Source: a virus (Duplodnaviria > Heunggongvirae > Uroviricota > Caudoviricetes). From it: a DNA stretch of 41,432 bases. Shown here piece by piece: positions 2,696-33,697 of the stretch (its first letter is position 1; the number at the start of each line of letters is the position of its first letter). Made by a program: the position numbers and the translations under genes. The notes beneath the pieces are model-generated. The model saw nothing but the letters and a program-made list of their open reading frames with translations. It did no database searches and was not told where the DNA came from. The stretch is from the IMG/VR virus record IMGVR_UViG_2563366824_000008; one strand, written 5' to 3'.

Positions 2696-3098
2696 CGTCT
2701 TTTCTCCCCGGAATTAACTCGCGTGGATTATCAGAACGGTGGTAGAGCCAGATGCCAATTCGCACTGCGACAATTGCTGATACGAATGCGCCAGCAGAGA
2801 AAACAATACCTTTCTCAAAAGAGTCCTGCGTGATGGTAGGTATCAGGCTGGCTATGCCGATAAGAATTGATGCTGCTGGTTTGTAGAAAAGAAGTCCGCA
2901 GAGAAAGCTAAGCATCGACAAGAGCACGCGACGACGAATGTGATACTCTACCGCCGAGGTAACAAAAATTACCGCGCCAGCCAAAGCCCCCAAAGCAACC
3001 TCAGGAGGCACTCCTGCTATCACCGCCGCCAGAGAACTCATGCTAAGCCACTGATTTAAAGTTTCACTGGTTAGTTGAGCTGACATATTTTCCACCAT
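2682..3098 (-). CDS. holin-like membrane protein
   Basis: 138 aa with about four hydrophobic segments; first gene of the lysis cassette. Confidence 0.5.
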   Translation of the reverse strand: MVENMSAQLTSETLNQWLSMSSLAAVIAGVPPEVALGALAGAVIFVTSAVEYHIRRRVLLSMLSFLCGLLFYKPAASILIGIASLIPTITQDSFEKGIVFSAGAFVSAIVAVRIGIWLYHRSDNPRELIPGRKDDGNA

Positions 3099-3453
3099 TT
3101 ATATGCATAACGACCTCCTGAATAGTAAAGCATTATGCATAATAAACCATTTATGGTTTTTTGTTACCCCTACATTGTCATTTCTATATCTTTCACACCA
3201 GAAAAAGATCTCACTATCACGACTTGTTAAGCCTATTGCCATGCCAGAACATTTCAATCCACAGGCATTCTAACTGGATGTGTTCACTCGCAATAAATTA
3301 CTTACAACAGACTATCGAACAGTAAATAAATATTCATGCAAGAATGAGAAAAGCGCCTGCACAGGCATATCACAAATAACATTATTTTTTACTACATCAT
3401 AAAAAATCGCGTTGTAATTTTGTATGTATTTCGTTATTGGTAATTATTTTATA

Positions 3454-6415: not shown

Positions 6416-6519
6416 GTTAAATCTCCAGATAGTCGCAGCACCCGTTGCGCCGCATATCTGGTTATTCTATTACCTGAAAAACCACATATGGATAGAAAGA
6501 CTGTGAATACGAATAGATA

Positions 6520-6914: not shown

Positions 6915-7006
6915 ATTTACATCGCACTCCTCTTGTGCCATAGTAATCGGGCACTGGCAAAATCCAGTGCCGGGATTGGCGTCCCGGATTACTAAAAGGC
7001 GTATTC

Positions 7007-7026
7007 ACCGCGCAAGCGGTTTTTTT
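7007..7026 (+). terminator. rho-independent terminator (GNRA-loop hairpin plus T-run)
   Basis: ACCGC-GCAA-GCGGT followed by TTTTTT; about 140 nt after the 6611..6868 stop. Confidence 0.5.
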
Positions 7027-7183
7027 ATGCGTATAGCACGGCCACATTCGTATTATGGTGGGCTGTGTGGGGGCACCGAAAGGTGCGCCGGGTCCTTTTA
7101 GCCGGTTACGCCAACCCTGCACAGTTCACCACCAACCGATTGGCGTCGGTAGTGGTGATTAACCAGACTAAAAGGTAACCACT

Positions 7184-9003: not shown

Positions 9004-9015
9004 GTGACATGTCAC
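9004..9015. repeat. 12-bp perfect palindrome GTGACATGTCAC, copy 1 of 3
   Basis: Exact 12-mer also at 26499..26510 and 28764..28775; each copy sits just past the stop of a minus-strand gene. Confidence 0.8.
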
Positions 9016-20322: not shown

Positions 20323-20648
20323 TCACCTCCGTTACCGTACAGAGTTTCAGCCGCTGATTTTTCTACATCCCCGGAAACAGGAGCAATCGCCATATCAGTG
20401 ATCTGCAGATCGGCGCTGCGATTAACACCATCGTCAGTTTCTCTGGCAGACAGGCCTCGAATAACAGCCTTTGCAGTTATCATCACTTCTGTTCCGACGC
20501 CCTGAGGTTGCGCCTTCAGCTTATTCAATGTGTCGTTATTAAGAGTGATGCACAGCCCCCACGGGTATTCATCGCGAGTTCTGGTTTCTCCGCTCTCATC
20601 CTGGTAGCTGTCAGTGCCGGTTTTGAGGTTTACGAGTTCCATATACAC
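20319..20648 (-). CDS. virion-associated hypothetical protein
   Basis: 109 aa; 4-nt overlap with downstream gene. Confidence 0.4.
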   Translation of the reverse strand: MYMELVNLKTGTDSYQDESGETRTRDEYPWGLCITLNNDTLNKLKAQPQGVGTEVMITAKAVIRGLSARETDDGVNRSADLQITDMAIAPVSGDVEKSAAETLYGNGGE

Positions 20649-20692
20649 TCCTGCAATAAAGGGGCCGAAGCCCCTTGTCTGATTCGCGAGGC

Positions 20693-21037
20693 TTACACGC
20701 CCAGTTCTTTACGCTTATCTGCGATCTTCTCGCGGAGCGTTTCGGCTTTGGCGTTATGGCGTGGCTTCTCGTTAAAGAGCAATTCGTACTCTTCACGGAG
20801 CTTATCCAGTTCACCATCATCTGACACATCGTTGATGATTTTGGTGCTGGTTGCTGCCATAGACACCTTTCCTGCTACCTTTGCTTTTGCCTGTCTGGCT
20901 GCATCGTTAACAGGTTCCAGTGCGCTACCAGGCTCACCTTCGTATTCGATTTCTGCCCCCTCCGGCCACAGTGTGTTATGGATATGAGAGAGGCGCAGAA
21001 CGCGGTATCTTGGTTTCTCACCTGACATCGAAATCAC
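20693..21037 (-). CDS. virion-associated hypothetical protein
   Basis: 114 aa; charged C-terminal helix. Confidence 0.4.
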   Translation of the reverse strand: MISMSGEKPRYRVLRLSHIHNTLWPEGAEIEYEGEPGSALEPVNDAARQAKAKVAGKVSMAATSTKIINDVSDDGELDKLREEYELLFNEKPRHNAKAETLREKIADKRKELGV

Positions 21038-21038
21038 C

Positions 21039-21476
21039 TTAACCAGTTACTTTTGAGCGGATCGGGTACGGTGTATTGGCATCAACATCCAGACTGATAC
21101 CCGCAGTGAATTTGCCGGCCGTTAGTGGGCCAGTTGCGACGGAGTAGTTAACACGCAGATATCGCTGAACACCGGCAGGCACCTTTGCAGAAACAACTCG
21201 TTTACCTGCTGTCAGGGTAGCCTTTGCCAGTGCGCCACTATCATAAATAGTGGACCATGAGCTGTTATTCTCACTCGTCTGCAACTGGATGTTTACAGTT
21301 GCCTCACCACTTGCCGTGGCGGCTTCGTTAACCAGCGCCCAAAACTCAAGCGGGTAACCCACGCCGATATCGCGACGATTTCCATCAATTGGACCTAGAT
21401 CGATTACGTCAGTAGAAGCCGCGGTATCAGTTACCGCCTGTGCTTCGGAGAACATCAACAGTTTGTCGGTGATCAT
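21039..21476 (-). CDS. putative capsid decoration or accessory protein
   Basis: 145 aa; immediately downstream of the major capsid gene; Thr/Ala/Gly-rich. Confidence 0.4.
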   Translation of the reverse strand: MITDKLLMFSEAQAVTDTAASTDVIDLGPIDGNRRDIGVGYPLEFWALVNEAATASGEATVNIQLQTSENNSSWSTIYDSGALAKATLTAGKRVVSAKVPAGVQRYLRVNYSVATGPLTAGKFTAGISLDVDANTPYPIRSKVTG

Positions 21477-21527
21477 CTTCTTTCTCCATTAGTGGGCCTG
21501 TTACGACCCACAGGTTAATAACAGGCG

Positions 21528-22520
21528 TTACACCACGCGGGCTTCTGTTTCCAGAAGCGCATCAGTTTCACGGATTGGTACACCACGGAATGAAGTCCAC
21601 CACTCGCCTTCTGTCTCTTTTACGCTGATCGCCAGAGATGTTTTCTCCAGAGATTGCAGATCAAGAGCCTGGCCTACAGTGCGGTTCATGTAGAACACCG
21701 GGCGACCCATTCCACGGTTTGGAATGCGATGCAGTGCTTTAACCATCAACTTCGCAATATTTGCGGCAGAGGAAGGTTCTGAAAGATTGCTGACATCGAT
21801 GTTTGCAATGCGAACAACATAACGCCAGTCACGCAGAGCAAGTCCGTTGTCCCATTTGTAATGGGTGCGATAGCCTTCGTACTTGCCGCCATTAGCATCT
21901 TCCAGTGTCACCTGGCCTTTATCTTCCATCTGGATGCCAGCCTTCTGCCCTTTCGGGAAGATGCCATGCACGGTGTTTTCGCCCCACACCACTAACCAGA
22001 TTGAGGTGTTATCTGTACCCGTGCCACCAGCATCAATGATGTTCTGAGCATTACCCGCAGACAGGCTGGAATAGCGGGAGGACAGTCCCATAAACTGCTG
22101 AGGGTTAACGCTGGAATCACCATAAAACAGCGTCTGCGCCATCTGCTGATTCATCGCTTCAATAAATGCGCGGTCTTCAGACAGGCGGAATTCAGCGGTA
22201 TTGCCGTTCAGATTAGCCAGTGACTTATCGACTTCAGCATAGGTTTCCAGCATGCCAACGGAATCGGTTACCTGCACTGTGGTTGATTTGCTTGGCTGTA
22301 CGCCATAGTTCAGCAAACGCCAGGTAGCTGAAGGTAAACCAGAACGAATGGTGGTTCGGTGTCCGGTAGGAAGGTTCCCTTCGACAAAAGGCATATCCTG
22401 AAGGATCGGGTTAGTTTGACCGAGAAGCTCGATAATCTTATCGACTTTCCCGTTTGGATCGACGCGCTTACCCCAGTCAGCCAGCGTTAGCGCAGTTAAG
22501 CCTTTAACAGCCATTGTCAT
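21528..22520 (-). CDS. major capsid protein
   Basis: 330 aa; follows the scaffold gene; size and composition typical of HK97-fold capsid proteins of T7-like podoviruses. Confidence 0.7.
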   Translation of the reverse strand: MTMAVKGLTALTLADWGKRVDPNGKVDKIIELLGQTNPILQDMPFVEGNLPTGHRTTIRSGLPSATWRLLNYGVQPSKSTTVQVTDSVGMLETYAEVDKSLANLNGNTAEFRLSEDRAFIEAMNQQMAQTLFYGDSSVNPQQFMGLSSRYSSLSAGNAQNIIDAGGTGTDNTSIWLVVWGENTVHGIFPKGQKAGIQMEDKGQVTLEDANGGKYEGYRTHYKWDNGLALRDWRYVVRIANIDVSNLSEPSSAANIAKLMVKALHRIPNRGMGRPVFYMNRTVGQALDLQSLEKTSLAISVKETEGEWWTSFRGVPIRETDALLETEARVV

Positions 22521-22528
22521 TTCCTCTC

Positions 22529-23230
22529 TTATTTGCCATAGAGCACTTCGGCCGCACTACGCTGGCCTTCATTACCACCGGTGACCATGCCATCTTCAGA
22601 CATCGCCTTTCCGATTTTCACGAACGTTTTGACCAGATCAGGGTGATTACCCAGCCCGGTGGTGTTCAGATATTCTTTGAGTTCAGGTGTCCCGAACTGG
22701 TCAAGCGCACGCTGTGCGGCGCTAAGGTTAGAAATCAACTTGTCGCCACCGATTTCTTTGTCAGCTTTTACATCCGCAGCCCACTGCTCGGTTGTTTTCT
22801 GCCAGGCTTCTGCCTGGCGCTGCTGAACACCTGCCAGAATCTTCGGATAAGCATCAACCAGCTTTTGCGCTTGCTCGTTGGTCAGGTTAAGTTCTCGCGC
22901 CACCGGCTCGAATTCCTTCAACGCTTCTGTATCCAGCTCTACGCCTTCGGCAGCCTGAAACTCGTACTTCTCAGGCGCACCCTCTGGTTTATCGCCGTCC
23001 TTTTTTTCATCCTGCTTATCGTTTTCAGGCTTTTTGTCATCAGCAGGTTTATCGCCATCAGCAACAGGTTGTGGCTTATCACCTTCCTGTTGTGATGGAT
23101 CACCAACTGGAGCAGGGTTATCACCTGCAGGCGCTGACGGTTCTGACGCAGCCGGAGCTGCTCCACCATCGACTGGTTGCTCATTGCAAAGACGGCGATA
23201 CAGCAAACGCTCAAATAAATTCATGATCAC
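22529..23230 (-). CDS. scaffolding protein
   Basis: 233 aa; acidic, Pro/Asp/Lys-rich low-complexity N-terminal half and helical C-terminus; lies between portal and capsid. Confidence 0.55.
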   Translation of the reverse strand: MIMNLFERLLYRRLCNEQPVDGGAAPAASEPSAPAGDNPAPVGDPSQQEGDKPQPVADGDKPADDKKPENDKQDEKKDGDKPEGAPEKYEFQAAEGVELDTEALKEFEPVARELNLTNEQAQKLVDAYPKILAGVQQRQAEAWQKTTEQWAADVKADKEIGGDKLISNLSAAQRALDQFGTPELKEYLNTTGLGNHPDLVKTFVKIGKAMSEDGMVTGGNEGQRSAAEVLYGK

Positions 23231-23523
23231 TCCTGTTCACTGGCCTCTTTGGCCATCTTCAAATACTGTTCAGGGCAATGCGCCATAACGCGCTGAAACA
23301 GTTCCAGCGCCAGATTGCGTTGCCCCTCATTAAATGCCATTGCCATAGCGTCCATCGGTGAGATAGCGGAAAACACACGGCCTTTCTCCAGCACCGACCA
23401 GACAACGCGACGCCCCTGTTTACTGCTCATGACAAAGCGAATGTCATCAATTTCACGCTGCGCCATGTCACGTTGCTTACGGGCGTTTTCTTCTTTCAGT
23501 TGATCGTCTTCGTAATCTGTCAT
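23227..23523 (-). CDS. hypothetical head-module protein
   Basis: 98 aa; 4-nt overlaps with portal and scaffold genes. Confidence 0.4.
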   Translation of the reverse strand: MTDYEDDQLKEENARKQRDMAQREIDDIRFVMSSKQGRRVVWSVLEKGRVFSAISPMDAMAMAFNEGQRNLALELFQRVMAHCPEQYLKMAKEASEQE

Positions 23524-25199
23524 TGTGATTGCCCACCCTGACCACTAACTGCATTCGCCATAGCTGACAAAACACTCGGATCAGAAGTTTTAGCTTCGCT
23601 TAGCGTTTTGGCACCCTGTGCCGCCGCCATCCCCATCGCCATCATTTGTTGCTGCTGTTGCTGCTGTGCCCGTTGCTGGCGAGCCTGCTCAACCTGTTCC
23701 TGCGGAACAATGACGGTTGGAGACACTCCGGACATATCAGCGAATGCATCGATCGCCTGATCAACGTTGAGTTTGTCGAGAGCTTCTGGTTTCGCTTGCG
23801 CAAGTTGACCAATGAAGTTAACCGTGGACGCCAGACTGGACAGGCCGATAGACTTCTGCGCCTGAGCCATGACGGAAATGTATTCGACCTTCAGGGGCAT
23901 ACCTTCCATCACGTCTGGCGGTGGCGGCAGCATGTTTTTACGCACCATCATCGAGAAAGAGCGATCAATGAGAGGATTAAGACATTCGTCGTTCAGGCGC
24001 TCCAGAACCGGCCCCAACATCAGAAGTTTTTCTTCTTTCATTTCGATCACCGCTTCCACAGGCATCGAGCGGGTATTGATGTTCTGCAACATCATGAACA
24101 GATCGACAAAGTAGGCGCTGTTAATGATTTGACGAGTGTCCTGAATGTCTGCCACCAAATCTGCTGTACTGGGGTTAACCAGATAAGCAGGCCTGAAACC
24201 ATCCTGACCAGTAATCTGATCGATATACGTGATGTCGCCAGGAAGAAGGGAGGCACGCTGATTCTTGAGGGAAGTCGGAGCAACCATCGGCGGATTGGTG
24301 GCTTTATCAATCAACTGCGACTTGCGCTTCTGGAGAAGCTGCAATGCCTTAACAGGTCCAAGCGCCAGCATACCAGGGCATGATGATCCATAAACATCTT
24401 CGCCATTAACTTCCCAGCGCGGAGCCATAATTGGAAACTCATCGAATCCGGACTCACGCAACAACTTGTCGTTATCGCCACCAACCTCGTAATAAACCGA
24501 TTTGAATGGCTTGTTCTTGCTATCCAGCTTCGATGTATCGCGGTCAATGTTCGGGTAAACCGAATGCATCACTTCAATCCACTTCTCGTAGGTGCCGCTT
24601 TCCCACATGCTTTTTACGGATTCGCTGACGTTATTTAGCCCGAACTCCTGAACAAGCTGACGAACAGTCATAGAGAACTTGCGAAAACAGGTGTCCACAC
24701 TGCCACGAGGTGAGTTAGCCAGGTAGTAACTGCCTATCGGGAATGGCATTGTGCGAATGATGTCCTCATCATCCTCCAGCACTGCCATTGCACCAGTGCT
24801 ATATGTGCCTAGGCTTCCGTATAACTGCGGCAGTGACTGATAGAGATTCGACTTATTGAACATATCGTTCATGCGGTTCTGCACCGCCTCAAGCCACAAC
24901 TTAACAGGGCCATAATCCATCATTTCAGGATCTGGCGTAGCCAGGCGAAACCACGGACGCGCGGGGCTTGTGATGCCTGACATCATGCCGCTGGCGAGAG
25001 TGCGCGCCGCCATAGTCCCGGTCGAATCAATAATGCGTGTATTGCGTCGATCGTTACGGTTGACCTCAGAAGTCAGAAAGCGGGAACCACGCGGGTTGAT
25101 GTAATCACTCAACTCGCGCCAGTGCGGCTCGAACGACTGACGCTCGCTTTCAAGTTGTGCGAACTGTTTGTTCAATCGCTCTTTAGTTGTTTCCGCCAT
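23520..25199 (-). CDS. portal (head-to-tail connector) protein, T7 gp8-like
   Basis: 559 aa; C-terminal Gln/Ala/Met-rich tail; follows the large terminase across the tRNA insert. Confidence 0.7.
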   Translation of the reverse strand: MAETTKERLNKQFAQLESERQSFEPHWRELSDYINPRGSRFLTSEVNRNDRRNTRIIDSTGTMAARTLASGMMSGITSPARPWFRLATPDPEMMDYGPVKLWLEAVQNRMNDMFNKSNLYQSLPQLYGSLGTYSTGAMAVLEDDEDIIRTMPFPIGSYYLANSPRGSVDTCFRKFSMTVRQLVQEFGLNNVSESVKSMWESGTYEKWIEVMHSVYPNIDRDTSKLDSKNKPFKSVYYEVGGDNDKLLRESGFDEFPIMAPRWEVNGEDVYGSSCPGMLALGPVKALQLLQKRKSQLIDKATNPPMVAPTSLKNQRASLLPGDITYIDQITGQDGFRPAYLVNPSTADLVADIQDTRQIINSAYFVDLFMMLQNINTRSMPVEAVIEMKEEKLLMLGPVLERLNDECLNPLIDRSFSMMVRKNMLPPPPDVMEGMPLKVEYISVMAQAQKSIGLSSLASTVNFIGQLAQAKPEALDKLNVDQAIDAFADMSGVSPTVIVPQEQVEQARQQRAQQQQQQQMMAMGMAAAQGAKTLSEAKTSDPSVLSAMANAVSGQGGQSQ

Positions 25200-25213
25200 T
25201 TCAATGACTCCGG

Positions 25214-25420
25214 TTACTGACCAAGCAGCGTTTTACCGCTGGTATTAGCGGTTGATGTGTCGCCCTGAGAACCGGTAAGCAGCGTAGAACTACGACCAGC
25301 AGCAGCGCGACGGCGACGTGTTTCTTCGTCGCGGGCATCAACAACGGCGGCATCCTGCTCCTGTGGTGCTGCCTGAACTTCTGGTGTTGCAGGCACTGAT
25401 GGTGAGCTACCCATGCACAT
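25214..25420 (-). CDS. small hypothetical protein upstream of portal
   Basis: 68 aa, Ala/Arg-rich; weak RBS; could be spurious. Confidence 0.3.
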   Translation of the reverse strand: MCMGSSPSVPATPEVQAAPQEQDAAVVDARDEETRRRRAAAGRSSTLLTGSQGDTSTANTSGKTLLGQ

Positions 25421-25510
25421 ATCAATGACTCCGTACGCAATTAAATTATTACCAATTTAACCACATATGATTTATTTATCGTAGAAGGTTGACATTTGAC
25501 GCGTGAATTA

Positions 25511-25525
25511 TTACCTTTCAGGTAA
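25511..25525. promoter_or_regulatory. candidate repressor operator TTACCTTTCAGGTAA with adjacent TTGACA
   Basis: Perfect motif copy; TTGACA at 25489..25494 immediately upstream; 320 nt before the tRNA. Confidence 0.45.
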
Positions 25526-25847
25526 CTAAAGAGCTCATTCCGGCTACTAACCTGACTGGCTTGTCGTTAAATTGAACAGGTAGAGTGAGATTTTATTTTG
25601 AGCAGTACGGCGTATGGCACATGCGCCGATAGCGGTCTGGATACGTTTAAGGGGCACCCTCCCTTGCTCGGGCAAACGAACCAGGTAGCCGGAATGTGCA
25701 AGTCGAGCGGTTTTATTCCGCGCACGGGGATTCACCATCCCGGCGATTCGGTGTGACGCCTCGGAAGAGACGAGGGTACAACGATGAGAGCATTTATGGA
25801 GCCGCGACAAAGTGTGGCGCCTTAACAGGCTAAGTGCTCTCAGCGTT

Positions 25848-25924
25848 GTGGCATTAGCTCAGTTGGACAGAGCAACCGCCTTCTAAGCGGTTGGTCGCAG
25901 GTTCGAATCCTGCATGCCACGCCA
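25848..25924 (+). tRNA. tRNA-Arg, anticodon UCU (argU-like)
   Basis: 77-nt cloverleaf folded by hand: acceptor GTGGCAT/ATGCCAC, D arm GCTC/GAGC, anticodon stem ACCGC/GCGGT with loop CTTCTAA, T arm GCAGG-TTCGAAT-CCTGC, discriminator G, encoded CCA. Confidence 0.9.
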
Positions 25925-25967
25925 GAATCACGCCTAAGGACCGTGATACCAGAAGTTCCAGGTGCTT

Positions 25968-26010
25968 GGCGGTGATGGTTTCCCTTGAAGGACTATCACC
26001 GCCCTTTTTA
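25968..26010 (+). terminator. rho-independent terminator after the tRNA
   Basis: GGCGGTGAT ... ATCACCGCC 9-bp stem followed by CTTTTTA. Confidence 0.5.
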
Positions 26011-26122
26011 CAGCAGGACGCCATTGCGATGACTTCATGCTGTAAACCCGTACAGCCACGGAAGGCATAACTCATTGCTTCCAGTTCGCCCGGTTCGCCG
26101 GGCATTTTTTTAAGGTGAGATT

Positions 26123-26494
26123 ATGAACGACCAGCAAATCGAAAAAGAAATCGTTGAGAAAGGCAAAACGGCACCGCGCGTTACGCCAGACCATATCGAA
26201 GGCATTATTGCTCAGGAGGCATATTTCACAGCAGAAGATGGTGCCTTTGGCAAAGCCATAAAAGCGAAACATACTGGCGGAGAGGTAAACTACCAGCCGC
26301 ACGAATCACTTTCTCTGCTGACGTTCTGCGTCCTGGTGCTGCGCAACGGCTTCACCGTCACCGGAGAGAGCGCCTGTGCAAGCCAGGAAAACTTTGATGC
26401 AGAAATTGGTCGGAAGATTGCCCGGCAGAATGCTGTAAACAAAATCTGGATGCTCGAAGGTTACTTGCTGAAGCAGAAGCTAAGCGAGCAATAA
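26123..26494 (+). CDS. hypothetical phage protein (possibly Gp49-like)
   Basis: 123 aa; RBS AAGGTGAG; on the opposite strand to flanking terL and portal; family assignment from memory only. Confidence 0.6.
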   Translation: MNDQQIEKEIVEKGKTAPRVTPDHIEGIIAQEAYFTAEDGAFGKAIKAKHTGGEVNYQPHESLSLLTFCVLVLRNGFTVTGESACASQENFDAEIGRKIARQNAVNKIWMLEGYLLKQKLSEQ

Positions 26495-26498
26495 CACC

Positions 26499-26510
26499 GT
26501 GACATGTCAC
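26499..26510. repeat. 12-bp perfect palindrome GTGACATGTCAC, copy 2 of 3
   Basis: Exact repeat; 5 nt after the 26494 stop and about 75 nt after the terL stop. Confidence 0.8.
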
Positions 26511-26512
26511 AA

Positions 26513-26540
26513 ACAGCCAGCCGATGAGCTGGCTTTGTTT
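26513..26540 (+). terminator. rho-independent terminator of the tRNA insert
   Basis: AGCCAGC-cgatga-GCTGGCT followed by TTGTTTT. Confidence 0.55.
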
Positions 26541-26584
26541 TATCCTCATCAGAGGATATCAACGACATTATCCCCACCAGCGGA

Positions 26585-28060
26585 TTAAGCATATGGATCG
26601 TAATCTGTGATGGCCTTGCCTTGCTGGTTCTGCTGCCCGGGAATTCGCAGACGCTTCGACACAGGGAACGCAAACGTCAGCAGTAGCGCATCGCCTTTAC
26701 CAGGAGAACGCCCAAGCCGCTCCTTGATATCTTCCTTCGGTTCGATAACGATTTTACCGTCCACTCGAACTTTGTACTCTGCCGCAGACAGGTCGTCCGC
26801 TGTTTCCTGGTCATCCAGCATGCCGCCCAGCCTCAGCCATGTCTTACATGAGTTGAACATCTCCCCACGCTTGTTAAGCATCTGCGGGTCAGTGGACGCA
26901 CCGCCGAACGGAACAAGTTGCCATGTACGTCCCCAGCCATCACCGATTGACTTCAAACCGGTTCCGTAACCGAAGTCGATGAACACCGCGTCAGCCTGAT
27001 ACTGGTCTTCAAAGTCAGCGATACGCTTCGCCATAATCAGATCGTCGGTTGTCTTGTTGCCAGTCCATAGCACCTTACTGTGCAGCCCCTGCCGCAGGTA
27101 TATCGCCGCGTCATCAACGCCTGAATATGCCGGGTCAACACCGATTATCACCGGAGCATGCGCCACCTGCGCAGCGGTTACCACCCGTTTCATTGCCTCA
27201 TCAGTAAGACCGGTAGGGATAAACTGCAATTCAGATGCATCAGGGAATATGCCGCGCACACGGATTTTAACGAAGTCGCTGTCTTCCCCGTAGTCATCAA
27301 CCCATTTCTGCAACTGCTGTTTGTTAGTGCCTTCCACCGTCCGGCTGTCAATCTGCGCAGTTTTCCAGCGGTGTTTATATTTGCGGAAACATTCACGGAA
27401 TCGCCCGGTATTACGCGTCGGGTTTCCGAACGCCACCCAGATAATCTCAGTGTCTTCGTCCGTTAGCGCACCTTCGGCAACTTCCCACACCAGATCCGCA
27501 ATATTCGACGCTTCATCGAATACCACGATGATGCGTTTGCGCTCGTTGTGTAGTCCGGCGAATGCCTCAGTGTTGTGCTCAGACCAGGGGATTGCGTCAG
27601 CTCGCCACCGCTTGTCGTGTCCAGGGTCATTGCTGTACATCGCGGTAGCTGTACAGGTAAACCAGTCTTTCGTGATAGCAAGGTTTGACCACTTGATAAT
27701 TTCCGGCCAGGTCTTCGTTCGTAGCTGGTTGTCGGTGTTGGCGGTCACCACGACCTTACAATCCTCGCAAGTGGACATGCCCCAGTTGATCAGCATTGAG
27801 ATGAATGCGGATTTACCAATACCGTGACCCGAAGCACGTGCCAGCATAAGCGGCTGATAGCGCGTCTCTGGATTCTGCAGGTGATCACGTATCTCTCGGA
27901 ACGCATCGGCCTGCCACTGACGTGGACCGGTGGCATGTGCCAGTTCAGTACCCTCTTCCCCCCACGGGAACGCATAGAGGGCATAGCCAAGCGGATCGTG
28001 AGTGAACCCTGCAATATCCTCGATCAACTGCTCTTCAGGAGATAACGCTGTATCTGTCAC
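26585..28060 (-). CDS. terL: terminase large subunit
   Basis: 491 aa; Walker A-like GHGIGKS; acidic ATPase motif VVFDEA; C-terminal nuclease-like region; 4-nt overlap with terS. Confidence 0.85.
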   Translation of the reverse strand: MTDTALSPEEQLIEDIAGFTHDPLGYALYAFPWGEEGTELAHATGPRQWQADAFREIRDHLQNPETRYQPLMLARASGHGIGKSAFISMLINWGMSTCEDCKVVVTANTDNQLRTKTWPEIIKWSNLAITKDWFTCTATAMYSNDPGHDKRWRADAIPWSEHNTEAFAGLHNERKRIIVVFDEASNIADLVWEVAEGALTDEDTEIIWVAFGNPTRNTGRFRECFRKYKHRWKTAQIDSRTVEGTNKQQLQKWVDDYGEDSDFVKIRVRGIFPDASELQFIPTGLTDEAMKRVVTAAQVAHAPVIIGVDPAYSGVDDAAIYLRQGLHSKVLWTGNKTTDDLIMAKRIADFEDQYQADAVFIDFGYGTGLKSIGDGWGRTWQLVPFGGASTDPQMLNKRGEMFNSCKTWLRLGGMLDDQETADDLSAAEYKVRVDGKIVIEPKEDIKERLGRSPGKGDALLLTFAFPVSKRLRIPGQQNQQGKAITDYDPYA

Positions 28061-28653
28061 TGATTACCATCCTGACGTTCTTTGAGTCGCTTCCTGGCTG
28101 CTGCTATGCGATCAGCAATTGTCACATTCACATTAACATCCAGACGTTCTTTGAACGCGTTGACATCAACATGCTTACCAATCAGTTCTAGGTTCTTCAC
28201 CTTGTCAGGCCATTTAATTTTTTTGAGGATTGTCTCTATCGAATCCTCGTTCATGTTCATGATGGTCGATGACAGATCAAAGCCACTAAGCGTAGTGCGC
28301 CAGATTTTCGGCCACTCACGGATTGGTTTAAGGCTCCCATCGTCGTTGAGGATATCGATCACGTCCATCTGGTCGATCTCCACCAGGCGCATGAGAACGT
28401 AATCAGCACTGACGCGCATTCGTTTGTTGCGCTCCTCCATCAACTCGGCAATCCGTTTTTGAATGCGTTCATCGCGCATCATGACACTGGCTTTAACTGC
28501 CGCTGTATTTGGGGAAAATCCTGCGTTAATCGCTGCCTGAGTCTGGTTTTCAGGCGTTTTGATGTATGACTGGCAATAAGCCTCCTGCATTGCTGTTAGT
28601 GGCTTAAATTGCGTTGATTTGCGTTTATAGGTTTTAGGTTCAGCAGGCATCAT
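28057..28653 (-). CDS. terS: terminase small subunit
   Basis: Start set at internal ATG-ATG with GGTGG RBS (ORF 28057..28731); DNA-binding N-terminal region; directly upstream of terL. Confidence 0.65.
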   Translation of the reverse strand: MMPAEPKTYKRKSTQFKPLTAMQEAYCQSYIKTPENQTQAAINAGFSPNTAAVKASVMMRDERIQKRIAELMEERNKRMRVSADYVLMRLVEIDQMDVIDILNDDGSLKPIREWPKIWRTTLSGFDLSSTIMNMNEDSIETILKKIKWPDKVKNLELIGKHVDVNAFKERLDVNVNVTIADRIAAARKRLKERQDGNQ

Positions 28654-28763
28654 AACCACCGTGGTAATAGTTACCGTTGTGGTAATAGTACCATGCAAAA
28701 TAAAGCCGCCATAGTTGGCGGCAGTATTCAAAACCCATCAAATTCATCATGCATAATCTACTC

Positions 28764-28775
28764 GTGACATGTCAC
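28764..28775. repeat. 12-bp perfect palindrome GTGACATGTCAC, copy 3 of 3
   Basis: Exact repeat overlapping the stop of the 28772..29113 gene, about 30 nt upstream of the terS ORF. Confidence 0.8.
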
Positions 28776-29113
28776 ACTATTAATTTCGTTTCATGCCAGC
28801 CTTTAGTCACCCAGCATTGCGAGTCACCATTACACGGGCATGAATTTACAGGAACTCTCTCGCCGCACTTACCGCAACGTTTTCTGCTGATCGATTTTAT
28901 ACGCCAGTGCACGCGTGCATCATCCTGGCGGATCAGTAACGCTATATACTCACCAAATTCGTAAGGCGCACGCCCGGGGCGACGCGTGGCACAGTTACGC
29001 TCCAGCATTTCAATTTCCTGAGCATCAAGCACAATCTCCAGCTTACGCACACCAGATGCAGCTTGTCTGGCTCTCTGAGCGGCTTTGCGCTCTGCTGCTG
29101 ATTTAGCCATCAA
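28772..29113 (-). CDS. zinc-ribbon protein, candidate late-gene regulator
   Basis: 113 aa; C-terminal CGKCG...SCPCNGDSQC cysteine cluster; last early gene before terS. Confidence 0.45.
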   Translation of the reverse strand: MMAKSAAERKAAQRARQAASGVRKLEIVLDAQEIEMLERNCATRRPGRAPYEFGEYIALLIRQDDARVHWRIKSISRKRCGKCGERVPVNSCPCNGDSQCWVTKGWHETKLIV

Positions 29114-29145
29114 TATTTACCTTTATCGCGAACACCTTTACCGGT

Positions 29146-29388
29146 TTATCTCCTTTGCATGGCACGTAATTTTTTCAGATGGTTCTCCTGCTCTGTTTCA
29201 GCCAGGATCTGGTGATATTCTCTGTGATCAATGTGTTCGAATAAATTATTGAATTTTCGGATGCACACTCTTCCAGGATAGCCATCCATCCTCTTGAAGA
29301 ACACTGAGTGATCAGTACTACGAATGATTTTTACTGGATAGCCAGCGCTATCGGTGTATATCTGACCACGTTGAATCAGAGAGAACAT
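29146..29388 (-). CDS. hypothetical early protein
   Basis: 80-aa ORF in the early-left operon. Confidence 0.45.
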   Translation of the reverse strand: MFSLIQRGQIYTDSAGYPVKIIRSTDHSVFFKRMDGYPGRVCIRKFNNLFEHIDHREYHQILAETEQENHLKKLRAMQRR

Positions 29389-29454
29389 TCGTTTATCCCC
29401 AGATAAAAATATAGCAATACCAATTACATAAAATACTTCAGGCCAAGCATCATT

Positions 29455-30114
29455 TCACCCCTGCGGCGGTTCTGGTAGAGGCATCCAGTGGGTTACCTCT
29501 TTGAGATACAGGTCTTCGCCATCACCGTCATCCCAAGTGGGATTGCCATCATTAAACCAGTCGCCATATACGCCGACCTGAGTGTTGGGGATGTTTGGTG
29601 GGTAGTTGTTTTTAAAGTCAGCTGCTAACACATAGCATTGTCGCTCTCCCATTTCTGGCATTCGCTCACTACAGCTTATCCAACCATCCGGAGTTACCGG
29701 ATAGTTTCCGGGTTCTTTAATGTGCAAGCGAGGCTCACCATCTTTTGGCTCAGGCCACTGGCGCTCCATGTTGATCTTCAATTTATCTTCCATAGCAGCG
29801 GTAATTTCAGCATCGCTGATGCCAGCACGGCGCTGTGCATCCCACAACAGAAACTGCATATCAGCCCACTCGCTAAGATCGTCTGGTTCGGCTGCGGCTT
29901 CCAGTGCCTCTTTTGAGAGATGTTTCAGCGGACCAATGGGGCCAACGCAGCCAAATGTGGAGTCAGACCATTTGGCATGCTCGTGGCGAATCTGTTCGCG
30001 TTCCAGTGATGCCAGTGCAATTCGTGCCAGTTCCATTTGTTCGCCACGAGTAAGTCCGTTATCAAGCGGATTTTTAATGAATAATTTGATACGTTCTTTG
30101 GTTATAGCGCTCAT
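29455..30114 (-). CDS. hypothetical early protein with Trp/Asp-rich C-terminal domain
   Basis: 219 aa; C-terminal region resembles a phage domain of unknown function (DUF551-like, from memory). Confidence 0.45.
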   Translation of the reverse strand: MSAITKERIKLFIKNPLDNGLTRGEQMELARIALASLEREQIRHEHAKWSDSTFGCVGPIGPLKHLSKEALEAAAEPDDLSEWADMQFLLWDAQRRAGISDAEITAAMEDKLKINMERQWPEPKDGEPRLHIKEPGNYPVTPDGWISCSERMPEMGERQCYVLAADFKNNYPPNIPNTQVGVYGDWFNDGNPTWDDGDGEDLYLKEVTHWMPLPEPPQG

Positions 30115-30115
30115 A

Positions 30116-30813
30116 TCACTCTCCTTTGATGCGAATGCCAGCGGCGCGGATTGCAGCGATGACCTCAGAAACTTTGTATGCCATTACCGTTTGGTAATCC
30201 TCGTGAAAATCTGTTCGATGAAGCATGCTGCTACGTTCTGGGAGCGATATTTCCCGTGCTTCCAGTTCTGCTATGCGCTTCTCTGCGGATTCCAGCGCCG
30301 CAACCAATTCGTCTACAGTTCCGGCAGCTTGCAGTGCGTAATCGGTAATAGCCATCTCATGATCAATTTCAGTACCGTTCTCATTCGTTGAGGTGATAGC
30401 AAAATAATCAGAGTCGATTTCGTTATCAGCTAAGTGGCGTAGCGTATCGGCAACAAGCCGGCCGTTTTCGATTAGCAGCTTCCCAACCGTAAGAGCAATT
30501 TCCTCGTTCTCCTGGTCGCGGGATTTGATGTACTGCTGGTTTCTTTCCCGTTCATCCAGAAGCGCCAGCACAGTAGCCGGATTGGCTGCGGCGATGAATT
30601 CAGCATTGGCCTGCTGTTCCATTTGGAAATCTTCATCGAAACCGCTTTCAGGATGCGCTCCTTCAATTCTGCAAATGGGAATATATCCAGCAACTTCACG
30701 ATGAATTAGCGCATCATCACCATCAAATCGGCTCTCTCCATATTCGAGCGACCACTCACCACACGTTGCTTTCTCTGCCTTTTCACGCAATGCCTGATAG
30801 TCAATCTTGTTCA
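30116..30813 (-). CDS. hypothetical early protein, coiled-coil
   Basis: Start set at GTG with GGGAGA RBS, just past the upstream stop (ORF 30116..30895). Confidence 0.45.
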
Positions 30814-31103
30814 CTGGTTGTCTCCCTTGCAGGGCTTTCGAATGTATCAAACTCAAACAACTTAACCACGTCATCAAACAGGACATAATCGCCATCAGGA
30901 TCTTCAGTCATGTCAGCGCCACAATCCTGACCGAACGAGTCACAACCATCCATATCAAGCTCGTATCGCTTCAGGTTTGCGATATTTGATAAATTCAGCG
31001 CCAGTACAGCCAGGTCATAAACCTCTTCGGCAGTGACATCGCTGTTCAGTCCCATTTCATGGCGATATATGATTTTTTCTACTCGTTGTTTTGTGATTGT
31101 CAT
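30801..31103 (-). CDS. small acidic hypothetical protein
   Basis: 100 aa; strongly acidic C-terminal half; ATGA overlap with the upstream gene. Confidence 0.45.
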   Translation of the reverse strand: MTITKQRVEKIIYRHEMGLNSDVTAEEVYDLAVLALNLSNIANLKRYELDMDGCDSFGQDCGADMTEDPDGDYVLFDDVVKLFEFDTFESPARETTSEQD

Positions 31104-31573
31104 TTTTGCTCGCCTCCCTGTTCTTCCAGAAAAATACGCATAGCCTCAAGCATCTCTTCGGTGTCATACGGTGACAACTTGTCACGCAGGATGTGTTCAA
31201 TGCTGTTAATGAACTTGCGGATTGCTTTGCGTTCAATTTCAGCCAGGAAAGCATCAGTGGCTGGAATGGGCTTTTGTGGTGATATAGCAATGCGAATTGT
31301 CTCAATGTCTGGATCTGTTTCCGCTGCTGGCACCTTGATATAACCCATCTGCACCCCATTCATGATGAACCTGCGACGGTCATCACATATCGCCTTTAGC
31401 CCCGCATTCTCAGCCGCCAGAGCATTAGCACGCACCAGTTGCACTTCCAGTTGCGTTGCCAAATCGCTGATCAGCTTTGCCACACTGCGCATATCAACGG
31501 CACCACATTCTGCTTTCAGTTCCGAAGCCATCTCATGCCCGGCGGCAACTAACCCTTTGATATTACTTTCCAT
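31100..31573 (-). CDS. hypothetical early protein
   Basis: 157-aa ORF; 4-nt overlap with the downstream gene. Confidence 0.45.
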   Translation of the reverse strand: MESNIKGLVAAGHEMASELKAECGAVDMRSVAKLISDLATQLEVQLVRANALAAENAGLKAICDDRRRFIMNGVQMGYIKVPAAETDPDIETIRIAISPQKPIPATDAFLAEIERKAIRKFINSIEHILRDKLSPYDTEEMLEAMRIFLEEQGGEQK

Positions 31574-31634
31574 CTTTACCCTCGCTTATCCACATAACTT
31601 ATTGATTACATTGATAACTAAAAAGATCGTCGAT

Positions 31635-31982
31635 TCAGAACTCTTCGATGTTCCAGCCGCCACCTGCTTTCTTTGGTTTAACCGTTACCCCGATGATTCG
31701 GAACGGATACTGATCTGCGGCTACTTTGGTTTTCACCCTGGCGTCGTCGGTCCAGAATCCCCCTTTCACTTCGTGCAGTTCCATCTCTCCGGTGGCGAGC
31801 ATCACAGCGAAATCGGGCGTATAGAACGTGTTGTCAGCTAACCGCAGCTTGATACCCTCGAATCGATACCAGGCGATTTCCCCTGCACGTTTACGCTGCT
31901 CAAGGTGCTGGCAATACGCAGATTCTGTTTTGTTCATCTGGCCTGTTTTGAGTCGACCAAGAGCCTGTATCTGTTTTCTCAT
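31635..31982 (-). CDS. phage protein of unknown function, possibly nuclease-like
   Basis: 115 aa; segment FYTPDFAV...ELHEVKGG suggests a PD-(D/E)XK-like fold (DUF1064-like, from memory); operator overlaps its RBS. Confidence 0.45.
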   Translation of the reverse strand: MRKQIQALGRLKTGQMNKTESAYCQHLEQRKRAGEIAWYRFEGIKLRLADNTFYTPDFAVMLATGEMELHEVKGGFWTDDARVKTKVAADQYPFRIIGVTVKPKKAGGGWNIEEF

Positions 31983-31985
31983 GAT

Positions 31986-32062
31986 TTACCTCTAAGGTAA
32001 TTAAAAACCACATAAGACACGAAATCAATAGAGTTTAGAATATTTTGTTACCTTATAGGTAA
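31986..32062. promoter_or_regulatory. two candidate repressor operators between P-like and downstream genes
   Basis: TTACCTCTAAGGTAA (31986..32000) and TTACCTTATAGGTAA (32048..32062). Confidence 0.5.
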
Positions 32063-32900: not shown

Positions 32901-33697
32901 GCTTCAGGGCTGTTCCAGTGCGGAACGTTGTTATCAGGTAATGTTGATTGCTTCTGTCTGCTAATCTGCAGCCGCCTTGCCAGCTTCTGCTCCCACTGTG
33001 CCTGATGGTATGCCTTACCCTCAGCCATCCAGTAAATTCTGAACTCTGCAAGTTCCTGTGCTGTTGGCAGACTGTCCAGGTAGATCCCCTGCAATGAGCT
33101 TTTCCGAAGAAAGTCATCTGATGGCTGCCATTGTTCATGCATGACAAATTTGCCTAATTGCCCTGGCCCACCAGGAGGAACAAAGTTATTCATCACGGCG
33201 TTGTTTGCGCCGGGGTCATGAGGCACAGAACCTCGGGTTTTTGTCCTGCTCTCCCTCTCTTGGTTAAATGACTGGTTATATGACTGGTTCTGGATCCCGT
33301 TTTTGGGATCATTCAACATCCCGTTTTTGGGATCATTCAACATCCCGTTTTTGGGTATATTCCCGTTTTCGGGAACATTACCGTTTTCGGGTTCATTGCT
33401 CCCTTTCCGGTTGCCTTTAATGTTCCCGTTTTTGGTTATATTAAGAGAGAAAACCCGCACTCTTTTCGTCGCTCCCTTTCTCTCTCCGGTATCTGAAATA
33501 AGCCCCATTTTCATGAGCGATATAAGTCCGGCCTGCACGGTTTTTTTATTCAGGCAAGTGTCTTTAACGAGGCGTTCTATGCTGGGGTAGCAGAGGTTAT
33601 ATTCATCGGCTCTGTCAGCCATCGAGAGCAGTATGAGCTTTAATGATGAGCTACCTGGATCTGTCTCCCAGGCCCAATCTGTTGCATGTCTGCTCAT
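32882..33697 (-). CDS. replication initiator O-like protein with in-gene origin iterons
   Basis: 271 aa; N-terminal winged-helix-like domain; central repetitive linker (PKNGMLND x2 and related) encoded by DNA direct repeats; C-terminal domain upstream of the P-like gene. Confidence 0.65.
   Translation of the reverse strand: MSRHATDWAWETDPGSSSLKLILLSMADRADEYNLCYPSIERLVKDTCLNKKTVQAGLISLMKMGLISDTGERKGATKRVRVFSLNITKNGNIKGNRKGSNEPENGNVPENGNIPKNGMLNDPKNGMLNDPKNGIQNQSYNQSFNQERESRTKTRGSVPHDPGANNAVMNNFVPPGGPGQLGKFVMHEQWQPSDDFLRKSSLQGIYLDSLPTAQELAEFRIYWMAEGKAYHQAQWEQKLARRLQISRQKQSTLPDNNVPHWNSPEAWEDFL
33294..33445. repeat. iteron array (candidate origin of replication)
   Basis: Two perfect 24-bp units ATCCCGTTTTTGGGATCATTCAAC (33294..33317, 33318..33341) followed by 3-4 degenerate CCCGTTTT(T/C)GGG-containing units. 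Confidence 0.6.

Follow-up and report, generated by a model that had tools for sequence, protein, structure and literature searches.

Why should a tRNA gene stand on the plus strand of a phage genome, inside a packaging and head module that is read from the minus strand? The window analysed here, meaning the whole 41,432-nt stretch of IMG/VR record IMGVR_UViG_2563366824_000008, comes from a phiV10-like Uetakevirus. On one flank of the tRNA insert lie the gp3 gene (25214–25420, minus strand) and the portal gene (23520–25199, minus strand; PF12236), and on the other the large terminase gene (26585–28060, minus strand), followed by the small terminase gene (28057–28731; PF03592). ARAGORN places a tRNA-Arg gene (anticodon UCU, tct) at 25848–25924 on the plus strand, and Rfam, in a cmscan of 25000–27000, calls the same gene as a member of RF00005, with 73.3 bits against a gathering score of 29. 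It is the sole tRNA gene of the window, has its 3′ CCA encoded and is annotated as tRNA-Arg in KP869107, in agreement with the initial annotation, which had described a canonical tRNA-Arg(UCU) at this place.

The tRNA is real but ordinary. It had been proposed to serve late-gene translation, and AGA and AGG do occur at 8.0 and 5.5 per 1000 codons across the phage, several-fold above the values typical of E. coli (about 2 and about 1 per 1000). The proposal is supported only in part, however: the capsid, portal and terminase block surrounding the tRNA (20508–28731) contains no AGA codon at all, the AGA codons are found in tail, tailspike and early genes, and the tRNA is itself within an early, repressor-controlled unit.

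Upstream of the tRNA, TTGACA at 25489–25494 on the plus strand can be read from the sequence as the −35 hexamer of a putative early promoter. The best −10 candidate, TACCTT at 25512–25517 (plus strand, 17-nt spacer), is weak, matching at 3 of 6 positions, and a consensus promoter scan made no call at the TTGACA/TACCTT site. The candidate −10 and the likely start site are overlapped by an operator copy, TATTACCTTTCAGGTAA (25509–25525), a palindrome of the form TTACC-N5-GGTAA. It belongs to a repeat family, D3, with copies at 6518, 7948, 25509 and 35089, and related palindromes lie at 32043 and 34326; sites marked 'repressor' and 'IHF' are annotated at the homologous place in the epsilon15 record. 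The operator is real, and repression in the lysogen is implied, as had been suggested when TTGACA and the operator were first noted ahead of the tRNA.

Downstream, three plus-strand hairpins match the intrinsic-terminator pattern of a G+C-rich hairpin with a T run. T1 (25968–26003; 14 pairs, then CTTTTT) is kept across the 28-member Uetakevirus class, with its 5′ half deleted in epsilon15. T2 (26088–26103) is a GCCCGG-TTCG-CCGGGC hairpin followed by ATTTTTTT; it passes strict terminator criteria, is present in epsilon15, whose record lists it as a rho-independent terminator, and immediately adjoins the Shine-Dalgarno sequence AAGGTGAG of a gene for a 123-aa protein (26123–26494, plus strand). 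T3 (26515–26534, plus strand) stands 3′ of this gene and is annotated in the phiV10 record as a terminator for the opposite-strand terminase genes. The gene is followed, as previously noted, by the 12-bp palindrome GTGACATGTCAC (26499–26510) as well as by T3; the palindrome has exact copies at 9004, 26499 and 28764, three observed against 0.1 expected. The initial annotation had a single terminator between the tRNA and the gene where there are two, and it called the gene co-transcribed. The gene does lie on the same strand, 3′ of the tRNA, but with two hairpins before it and no promoter-like site found between T1/T2 and the gene in the window scan, co-transcription would need read-through and remains uncertain.

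The 123-aa protein matches Pfam PF13876 (118.5 bits, with the curated cut-off at 27; E 1.8e-34), a membership that the initial annotation had missed. Acb4 of phage SPO1 has been placed in PF13876, and the Acb4 family defined as PF13876 (PMC11722364). When the family profile is compared with the Acb4 structure (PDB 9e4w), about 40 residues, all that can be aligned to the solved protein, match the Acb4 core (E 3.8e-5). The product is thus a predicted anti-CBASS nucleotide sponge of an immune-evasion family, homologous to Acb4 by family profile; such a sponge would form a tetramer whose nucleotide-binding pockets take up CBASS signals.

The initial annotation had also remarked that the long leader ahead of the tRNA could hide a second non-coding RNA, and such an RNA was found. 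A structured RNA of about 245 nt occupies 25607–25851 of the plus strand. Its 5′ domain (25607–25775) is made up of helix H1 (25608–15/25621–28), helix H2 (25637–40 and 25643–47, paired with 25675–79 and 25681–84), a near-invariant 19-mer (25684–25702), a variable hairpin (about 25705–25724), helix H4 (25727–31/25737–41), a pseudoknot (25733–36 with 25750–53) and helix H5 (25759–63/25771–75), whose loop is GGAAGAG. The 3′ domain (25779–25851) is a long-range helix closing a variable three-way junction; the helix pairs CAACG-AT-GAGAGCA (25779–25792) with TGCTCTC-AG-CGTTG (25835–25848). The element ends in GTTGTGG (25845–25851), which overlaps nucleotides 1–4 of the tRNA. Homology to mEp460 and to Stx2c phages stops at 25851, the same GTTGTGG boundary is found in SfV and ST64B, and the 5′ boundary is sharp in every context compared.

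The structure, five helices and a pseudoknot, is backed by covariation. Among 44 non-redundant copies, 90.3% of cells at the proposed pairs are paired, against 30–45% when the partners are slid, and 18 pairs have changed on both sides, against 5–9. The covariation score is 0.329 against at most 0.078 for slid partners, and none of 500 shuffles reaches the observed value. In the distal half of the 3′ helix, pairing is preserved by differing sequence pairs across classes, and the minimum-free-energy fold recovers this helix. Our covariance model (R1) scores 152 bits at the window copy; across the loci searched (lambdoid, P1-like, Uetakevirus, SopranoGao and genome-derived) its matches are full-length, at 116–190 bits. 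Of 130 copies retrieved by an independent motif, 123 have the exact 19-mer. A long-range pairing between the 5′ region and the 19-mer, suggested by RNAalifold, was set aside; the 19-mer is invariant, and natural variants (GGTAACCGG) break one of the proposed pairs.

The element is undescribed in the databases and papers searched. Rfam at gathering thresholds over the whole window gives no match in the leader, and the Rfam 15 cmscan of 25000–27000 at E ≤ 1 returns, besides the tRNA, only a spurious antisense match on it; no riboswitch, T-box, ribozyme or sRNA family of Rfam 15 matches the leader. No description was found in the literature searched (on the 19-mer, P1 trnI/ban, phiV10/epsilon15 and structured prophage RNAs), and wherever annotation was shown the element is unannotated, apart from hypothetical ORFs drawn over it in some records, on either strand. 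The STnc100/PasD sRNAs (RF02076) resemble the element in being leader-associated RNAs of prophages (bioRxiv 10.64898/2026.05.13.724894). The leader segment of SfV and ST64B that starts at the GTTGTGG boundary gives STnc100 (RF02076) matches of 35–39.5 bits (E about 1e-5), below the gathering score of 47; these lie downstream of the element, not inside it, and STnc100 has no Rfam match in the window.

The element is widespread and heads early operons in many temperate phages that are unrelated to one another (lambdoid phages, P1-like phage-plasmids, Uetakeviruses and Stenotrophomonas phages). Of 5426 complete E. coli genomes 1840, about a third, have a match, and the carriers include Stx2c and Stx2a Shiga-toxin phages; in K-12 MG1655 the one locus checked, the CPS-53 remnant, has no copy. 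Phage Ayreon can be grown on K-12. C4 and IsrK are encoded too, at other places, in the window and in several carriers.

Placement is for the most part promoter-proximal. The element begins 40–115 nt downstream of a repressor-controlled early promoter in mEp460, mEp390, Stenotrophomonas phage BUCT709, Ayreon and the window. The first four have four different operator types and one order, namely cI, OL operators, 40–115 nt, element; their OL operators match the OR operators of the same phage and overlap a sigma-70 promoter, and a terminator follows cI in mEp460, mEp390 and Ayreon. Near-consensus promoters stand at the place equivalent to that of the window's promoter in Ayreon, SfV, mEp390 and BUCT709. 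The window follows the same plan, with promoter and operator, about 85 nt, and then the element. A tRNA lies directly behind the element in 45 of 130 loci; P1-type loci have a tRNA(CAU) 18 nt upstream, and in some copies T-arm-like hairpins or a tRNA remnant are seen in or after the 3′ domain.

The cargo of 25 representative loci is what early-left operons typically carry, int/xis among it, and a Pfam search of 117 downstream ORFs from these loci found no N-type antiterminator, although a divergent N could escape Pfam. No N gene is annotated in Stx2a_WGPS2 or Ayreon. SfV orf33 was weighed as a possible N analogue and rejected, since it lacks both an arginine-rich motif and a Pfam match. By strict criteria, same-strand intrinsic terminators occur within 800 nt downstream of the element in 7 of the 21 sequence classes, compared with 3 of 143 background windows; a permissive predictor shows no enrichment (49% of loci, 37% of background windows).

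The reading that we favour, with a probability of roughly 0.4, is that the element may be a leader acting in cis to sustain elongation by RNA polymerase across untranslated RNA and terminators. This is suggested because a covarying RNA stands just after an early promoter, with no recognisable N and with strong terminators enriched behind it, and because the tRNA cargo is the kind of transcript that rrn-type antitermination protects. We take the region to be an accessory transcription unit, early and under repressor control, set into the late packaging and head module on the opposite strand, in the order promoter/operator, about 85 nt, 245-nt RNA cassette, tRNA-Arg(UCU), T1 and T2, Acb4-family gene and final terminator. 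The RNA is an autonomous cassette, exchanged horizontally and heading the repressor-controlled early transcripts of many temperate phages. We infer an effect on RNA polymerase, Rho or terminators, in which the RNA would act in cis on the polymerase molecule that made it. The folded 5′ domain, which includes the invariant loops and the pseudoknot, would sustain elongation over long stretches of untranslated RNA, such as the tRNA here, and past downstream terminators, such as T1 and T2, so that the cargo would be expressed only upon derepression.

The mode would resemble that of lambda nut/N or HK022 put, without kinship to either. HK022 put suppresses termination without a phage protein, and nutL and putL lie at the equivalent promoter-proximal place (PMC9378689). 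Like put, the element is a cis-encoded RNA shortly after a repressor-controlled early promoter, in lambdoid phages without a functional N-type system there. Put is about 70 nt long, has two stem-loops and occurs twice, at PL and PR, whereas the element measures 170–245 nt, has five helices, a pseudoknot and a second domain, and is present in one copy; any antitermination here is a candidate activity. Homology to put was rejected, the R1 model giving no match at E ≤ 1 in HK022 22000–32000, a stretch picked so as to span the immunity region.

Like nut/N, the element heads an early-left operon, but neither an N gene nor a boxB-type hairpin was recognised. As in lambda nut and the boxB-boxA-boxC arrangement of rrn leaders, boxA-like strings (UGCUCUUU, UGCUCUCA, GCTCTTTAA) lie downstream of the 5′ domain, and as in rrn operons untranslated RNA is carried behind the element. 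Unlike the boxA of nut or rrn, the string is in most cases base-paired, and not every variant conserves it. UGCUCUUU or UGCUCUCA forms the 3′ strand of the 3′ helix, and some variants swap in unrelated sequence with the pairing intact; three classes without the 3′ helix have a free GCTCTTTAA after a hairpin. TGCTCTCA, at first taken for boxA, is mostly the 3′ strand of the covarying helix, and boxA is therefore retained as weak evidence only.

Several observations weaken the cis-acting reading. The element is dispensable and exchangeable, since SfV shares the promoter and first early-left gene with Ayreon yet has neither element nor N-like ORF, and epsilon15 has lost most of the element while keeping T2 and the 123-aa gene. 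The P1 copy lies 2.3 kb from Pban, immediately after tRNA-Ile, without the 3′ domain and with no strong terminator behind it; in SopranoGao the element comes after the lysis genes, close to one end of the genome; and the mEp460 type, the largest lambdoid class, has no strong intrinsic terminator within 800 nt. The mostly paired boxA-like string counts against the reading too, as does the outcome of a covariance-model search for a second, putR-like copy serving the rightward operon, which found none except for a tandem pair in one locus (L027).

Dispensability would suit the alternative that we judge nearly as likely, in which the element is a stable early RNA acting in trans, excised by tRNA-processing enzymes. 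Its invariant loops would bind a conserved host or defence factor, and together with the tRNA and the Acb4 homologue it would make up an early host-takeover or counter-defence module. RNase P cleavage at 25847/25848 would set its 3′ end here, and 3′ processing of tRNA-Ile its 5′ end in P1. The recurrent tRNA or tRNA-like neighbours, whether fused at the 3′ side, 18 nt upstream or present as remnants, are consistent with this, as are the co-located anti-CBASS gene, the horizontal exchange of a cassette with sharp boundaries (unrelated cargo replaces it in SfV), and unpaired nucleotides that are near-invariant from Escherichia to Stenotrophomonas phages; an sRNA-like 3′ end could explain the strong terminators that a third of classes have shortly behind the element. 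Stable RNAs of unknown function come from the tRNA cluster of T4 (species 1 and 2 RNAs), and P1 C4 and P4 CI are regulatory RNAs processed by RNase P from phage leaders. These are precedents for a non-coding RNA beside tRNA genes in an early phage transcript, although they have no sequence or Rfam relationship to the element. Against action in trans, the element lacks its own promoter or terminator in most contexts and is always inside a longer operon, nearly always promoter-proximal, neither of which would be required of a free-standing sRNA gene; we can point to no target or partner, and reading the window spacer by eye we noticed no complementarity to downstream sequences.

It is unlikely that the element is a sensor, riboswitch-like or tRNA-sensing, tying the early operon to a small molecule, a defence signal or a tRNA. 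Its complexity is aptamer-like (multi-helix junction, pseudoknot, invariant junction nucleotides), it has a 5′ leader position with terminators downstream in some contexts, and in the window an anti-CBASS gene follows; more speculatively, the H1 loop contains UGGC, complementary to the tRNA 3′ GCCA, and the H5 loop contains AGA. The genes downstream are heterogeneous (early-left operon, ban, tRNA, acb4), the conserved core is not overlapped by any consistent expression platform, and in the window the tRNA gene stands between element and terminators. The H5 loop is replaced in one class, and the searches for riboswitch and T-box families gave no match.

We find it similarly improbable that the element is an RNA processing or stability module without a specific partner, such as a structured 5′ end that shields the mRNA behind it or separates tRNA from mRNA. 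It does adjoin tRNAs and stands at the 5′ end of long leaders, and the epsilon15 record has an RNase III site in the same intergenic region, though on the other strand, but simple stabilisers need neither some 245 nt nor a pseudoknot nor a 19-mer kept this exactly. That the leader is conserved as a small protein-coding gene or DNA-level site, with no RNA, is very improbable despite the hypothetical ORFs annotated over it, because each frame is interrupted in most of the 92 distinct copies (open in 36% of them at most), on which the coding reading was rejected, the compensatory substitutions include G-U pairs workable on the plus strand only, and the orientation is always that of the upstream promoter.

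The locus thus holds known items that are confirmed, namely the tRNA, the operator and the Acb4-family gene, and a new one, the structured RNA, which sits where lambda and HK022 place their early-expression switches, in phages without a recognisable N protein. It is conceivable, and we advance it tentatively, that the element is the first member of a new class of phage regulatory RNA, either a protein-independent control of elongation unrelated to put or an early RNA engaging a conserved host, tRNA-related or defence component, and in either case one of a set of interchangeable 'early-leader RNA cassettes' swapped by temperate phages at the heads of early operons; in ST64B a 3′ helix of this type is joined to a different 5′ domain. 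If it acts in trans, the element would be a new RNA of early host takeover or counter-defence. Should it control elongation, it would represent a second way, unrelated to the known one, of achieving antitermination without a protein, and would bear on how early genes are switched on in Stx and P1-type prophages.

At 95.6% identity, the stretch 25201-26600 matches Escherichia phage phiV10 and the O157 typing phages 9 and 10, all of the genus Uetakevirus (epsilon15 group). Its leader and tRNA region is flanked on one side by gp3 and the portal gene (23520-25199, Pfam Head-tail_con) and on the other by the large and small terminase genes, all on the minus strand. ARAGORN calls one tRNA in the whole window, tRNA-Arg(tct) at 25848-25924 (+), and with 73.3 bits it clears the Rfam tRNA model's threshold of 29, bearing out the canonical tRNA-Arg(UCU) of the initial annotation. 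The equivalent of 25848-25924 is annotated as tRNA-Arg in the typing phage 9 record. The phiV10 record leaves the tRNA unannotated and has instead an antisense 83-aa hypothetical protein, PhiV10p04 (3154-3405 in the retrieved phiV10 locus L002; window 25854-26105, minus strand), an ORF that is probably spurious.

Upstream, TTGACA at 25489-25494 (+) reads as a -35 hexamer; its best -10 candidate, TACCTT after a 17 nt spacer, is weak, and a consensus promoter scan did not call the site. A 17 bp palindromic operator follows at 25509-25525, one of a repeat family of the form TTACC-N5-GGTAA dispersed through the window (further copies at 6518, 7948 and 35089, related copies at 32043 and 34326), and the epsilon15 record labels the same site ‘repressor’. 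These scattered copies suggest a P1-like plan, with one repressor presiding over several dispersed early units. Between the tRNA and the 123-aa gene (26123-26494, +), where a single terminator had been described, two terminator-like hairpins were found, T1 (25968-26003) and T2 (26088-26103), the latter abutting the Shine-Dalgarno sequence; T3 (26515-26534), another such hairpin, lies 3′ of the gene. The earlier description of tRNA, TTGACA, operator and palindrome was accurate on checking. The palindrome, GTGACATGTCAC (12 bp), has three copies in the window (9004-9015, 26499-26510 and 28764-28775; 0.1 expected). One of these lies ∼30 nt before the small terminase gene, one immediately 3′ of the large terminase gene and one where the minus-strand late block has its far end; a late regulator may bind there, or the copies may mark late-unit boundaries. 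Iteron-like 24-nt direct repeats, ATCCCGTTTTTGGGATCATTCAAC and variants spaced by 18-45 nt, cluster at 33287-33443, possibly a replication origin.

Homology searching with the leader alone (25441-25847) found 25607-25847 to be ∼82% identical to unannotated DNA of lambdoid phages (mEp460, cdtI, Ayreon, 2H10, and Stx2c and Stx2a phages), and 25607-25769 to be ∼80% identical to P1, P7, D6 and other phage-plasmids; a core also matches Stenotrophomonas phages and Klebsiella phage SopranoGao. Whatever the context, the 5′ edge is fixed to the base, at 25607/25608, and the last four bases are nucleotides 1-4 of tRNA-Arg, giving an element spanning 25607-25851 (+). With its invariant 19-mer GGTAGCCGGAATGTGCAAG (25684-25702) as query, at least 120 viral contigs were found, and these gave 101 distinct cores. 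The conservation of the 19-mer is not a search artefact, because an independent motif, the loop of helix H1 plus AGCGGTC, retrieved essentially the same loci, with the exact 19-mer in 123 of 130, one substitution in five and truncated epsilon15-type remnants in two. Among species-representative genomes the element was found only in Enterobacterales, except for two oddly labelled MAG bins. These bins (L149 and L161, labelled Oscillospiraceae and Bacillota) carry the exact 19-mer, L161 with a full-length match of 186 bits, and are most simply mis-binned enterobacterial phage DNA. The element is matched in 1840 of 5426 complete E. coli genomes, with no annotation beneath it among the 30 matches listed; the K-12 MG1655 prophage remnant CPS-53 has no copy. 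Two full-length copies occur on one viral contig, L027, ∼800 nt apart on the same strand (3989-4170 and 4796-4975, minus).

The element is a structured RNA, as covariation in 44 aligned non-redundant copies attests, and the earlier suspicion that the leader hides a second non-coding RNA was thus well founded. For the model tested (four helices plus a pseudoknot), standard pairs fill 90.3% of cells, a figure that drops to 30-45% once the 3′ partners are slid; both sides have changed in 18 pairs (5-9 in slid controls), compensatory cells number 141 (at most 32 in controls), and the covariation score is 0.329 (at most 0.078 in controls), a value reached in 0 of 500 shuffles. A pair in H1 exchanges G:C for A:U (20 versus 23 sequences), H2 passes from CTGG/CCAG through CCGG/CCGG to CCAC/GTGG, and a pseudoknot pair changes from C:G to A:U in three sequences. 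In the 3′ domain, 3′ of helix H5, a long-range helix joins CAACG-AT-GAGAGCA with TGCTCTC-AG-CGTTG around a variable insert, and its distal half keeps pairing via GAGAGCA/UGCUCUC, AAGAGCA/UGCUCUU, GAGCGCAC/GUGCGCUC and AGCGCA/UGCGCU. Thermodynamic folding of the window sequence alone yields H1, H5 and a 3′ three-way junction, and the G-U pairs are compatible with the plus strand only. Each reading frame is open across the element in at most 36% of 92 distinct copies, and an Rfam search of the leader gave no match at E≤1. T-arm-like hairpins (GGTTCGATTCC, GGTTCAATTCC) occur within variable 3′-domain inserts among loci L104, L077, L013/L007 and L100; the L104 insert contains a near-complete tRNA-like sequence not called by ARAGORN, and L085 has a tRNA 5′ remnant 3′ of GTTGTGG.

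In 67 of the 97 loci with a callable upstream ORF, that ORF encodes a CI/LexA-type repressor on the same strand. The early-left layout was checked in four phages, each with a different operator sequence: mEp460 (TTGC-N7-GCAA), mEp390 (GTAGGATATCCTAC-type), Stenotrophomonas BUCT709 (TGTTAGA...TCTAA) and Ayreon, whose depositors annotated the promoter and terminator. All share the order cI, operators over a good sigma-70 promoter, 40-115 nt, element, and in each the operators before the element match the phage's own OR; a terminator lies 3′ of cI in mEp460, mEp390 and Ayreon, and none was identified in BUCT709. The element thus heads the early-left transcript as its promoter-proximal leader, and the window follows the same plan, with promoter and operator ahead of the element. 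In P1 the element, without its 3′ domain, lies 14 nt 3′ of tRNA-Ile (trnI) and ∼100 nt 5′ of ban, in the C1-controlled ban operon. Of 130 loci, 45 have a same-strand tRNA next to the element; this is tRNA-Arg(UCU), fused at the 3′ boundary, or a P1-type tRNA(CAU) 18 nt upstream. The 117 downstream ORFs from 25 representative loci are ordinary early-left cargo (ParB-HTH, DUF2303/YfdQ, 5′-nucleotidase, RdgC, Ead/Ea22, int/xis). Carriers of the leader RNA tend to have the isrK/C4 anti-repressor control module in common: this P1-type immI RNA pair, found by Rfam in the window at 6951-7026 (isrK, +, 77 bits) and 7051-7136 (C4 antisense RNA, +, 78 bits), is also present in mEp460, SfV and Ayreon.

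Epsilon15 has lost, by deletion, all of the element beyond its first ∼36 nt, as well as the tRNA and the 5′ half of T1; promoter, operator, T2 and the gene are all still there. SfV shares with Ayreon the cI terminator, an identical TTGACA-16-CATAAT promoter and a 100% identical first early-left gene. Its leader slot has no element and holds a 98-aa ORF, not N-like, and an opposite-strand ORF, with the last bases of the element and the 3′ flank still present (AGCGTTGTGG-TGAATGCGG). In ST64B the slot holds a different ∼270-nt sequence, then a helix of the same type (CAACAGATAAGAGTT...AACTCTTATCGTTGTGG). These variants show the element to be a cassette that can be exchanged or dispensed with, set within a modular early leader. 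The ST64B leader (2800-3175 of locus L169) is unannotated, its 3′ helix ending in GTTGTGG; its first ∼70 nt are kept in SfV (2518-2586 of L168), its first ∼60 nt have further matches in other phages of Salmonella, Klebsiella, Yersinia and Pectobacterium, and it may represent a second early-leader RNA family. From the GTTGTGG boundary, SfV (3151-3366) and ST64B (3156-3274) match STnc100, a prophage sRNA family, at 35-39.5 bits, a likeness that is sub-threshold only (gathering score 47).

The put RNAs of HK022 are ∼70 nt, form two stem-loops and lie at both PL and PR (PMC9378689), whereas the element has one copy per locus, save for the tandem pair in L027; a covariance model built on its 5′ domain found no second copy near the rightward promoter. 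Homology to put was rejected, the same model matching nothing at E≤1 in HK022 22000-32000. No N-type protein family was recognised by Pfam among the 117 downstream ORFs. By strict criteria, the 800 nt after the element contain a strong intrinsic terminator in 7 of 21 sequence classes (background windows: 3 of 143), the mEp460-type and P1-type classes not being among the seven; a permissive predictor gave no enrichment. BoxA-like strings, a lead only, are found at two places. One is the 3′ strand of the 3′ helix, where they are mostly base-paired; the other, in the three classes without that helix, follows a hairpin and overlaps the terminator of a convergent gene.

Our leading interpretation, at a probability of about 0.4, is that the element would control elongation in cis, as a promoter-proximal leader acting on the RNA polymerase that has just transcribed it. 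Such a role would explain why it lies close to the promoter in immunity systems that are unrelated, why N is missing, and why terminators (in the window and in a third of classes) and untranslated cargo come after it. It would leave unexplained the repeated association with tRNAs, the settings in P1 and SopranoGao, and how SfV manages without the element. The cassette behaviour, tRNA neighbours, invariant loops and company of an anti-defence gene would follow if the element were a processed RNA acting in trans, an alternative nearly as likely, though one that names no partner and does not need the observed promoter-proximal position. That it is a sensor, or a processing or stability module, is in each case improbable.

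The tRNA had been proposed to serve late-gene translation. Phage-wide, AGA and AGG stand at 8.0 and 5.5 per 1000 (12,657 codons, from crude ORF calls, some of them spurious), and typical E. coli frequencies are several-fold lower. The capsid, portal and terminase block (20508-28731) contains zero AGA codons, these being located in tail, ejection, tailspike and early genes. The tRNA, which by its position would be transcribed from the early promoter, is plausibly of benefit to the phage, but its neighbouring genes are not the ones it serves; the earlier proposal is only partly supported.

The 123-aa product belongs to Pfam PF13876 (Phage_gp49_66; E 1.8e-34), the family of the SPO1 anti-CBASS sponge Acb4 (Chang et al., PMC11722364); against the Acb4 structure 9e4w the protein alone gives E 0.006 and a 20-sequence family profile E 3.8e-5. 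Because T1 and T2 intervene, the gene would be co-transcribed with the tRNA only if both are read through. Among the 117 downstream ORFs, one has a match to a Tad2-like (Thoeris anti-defence) domain, and some L083-type loci, from Uetakevirus relatives, have a longer 207-aa protein behind the tRNA and terminators. The predicted immune-evasion gene would fit an early, repressor-controlled unit, and the slot behind the element may hold differing anti-defence cargo from phage to phage.
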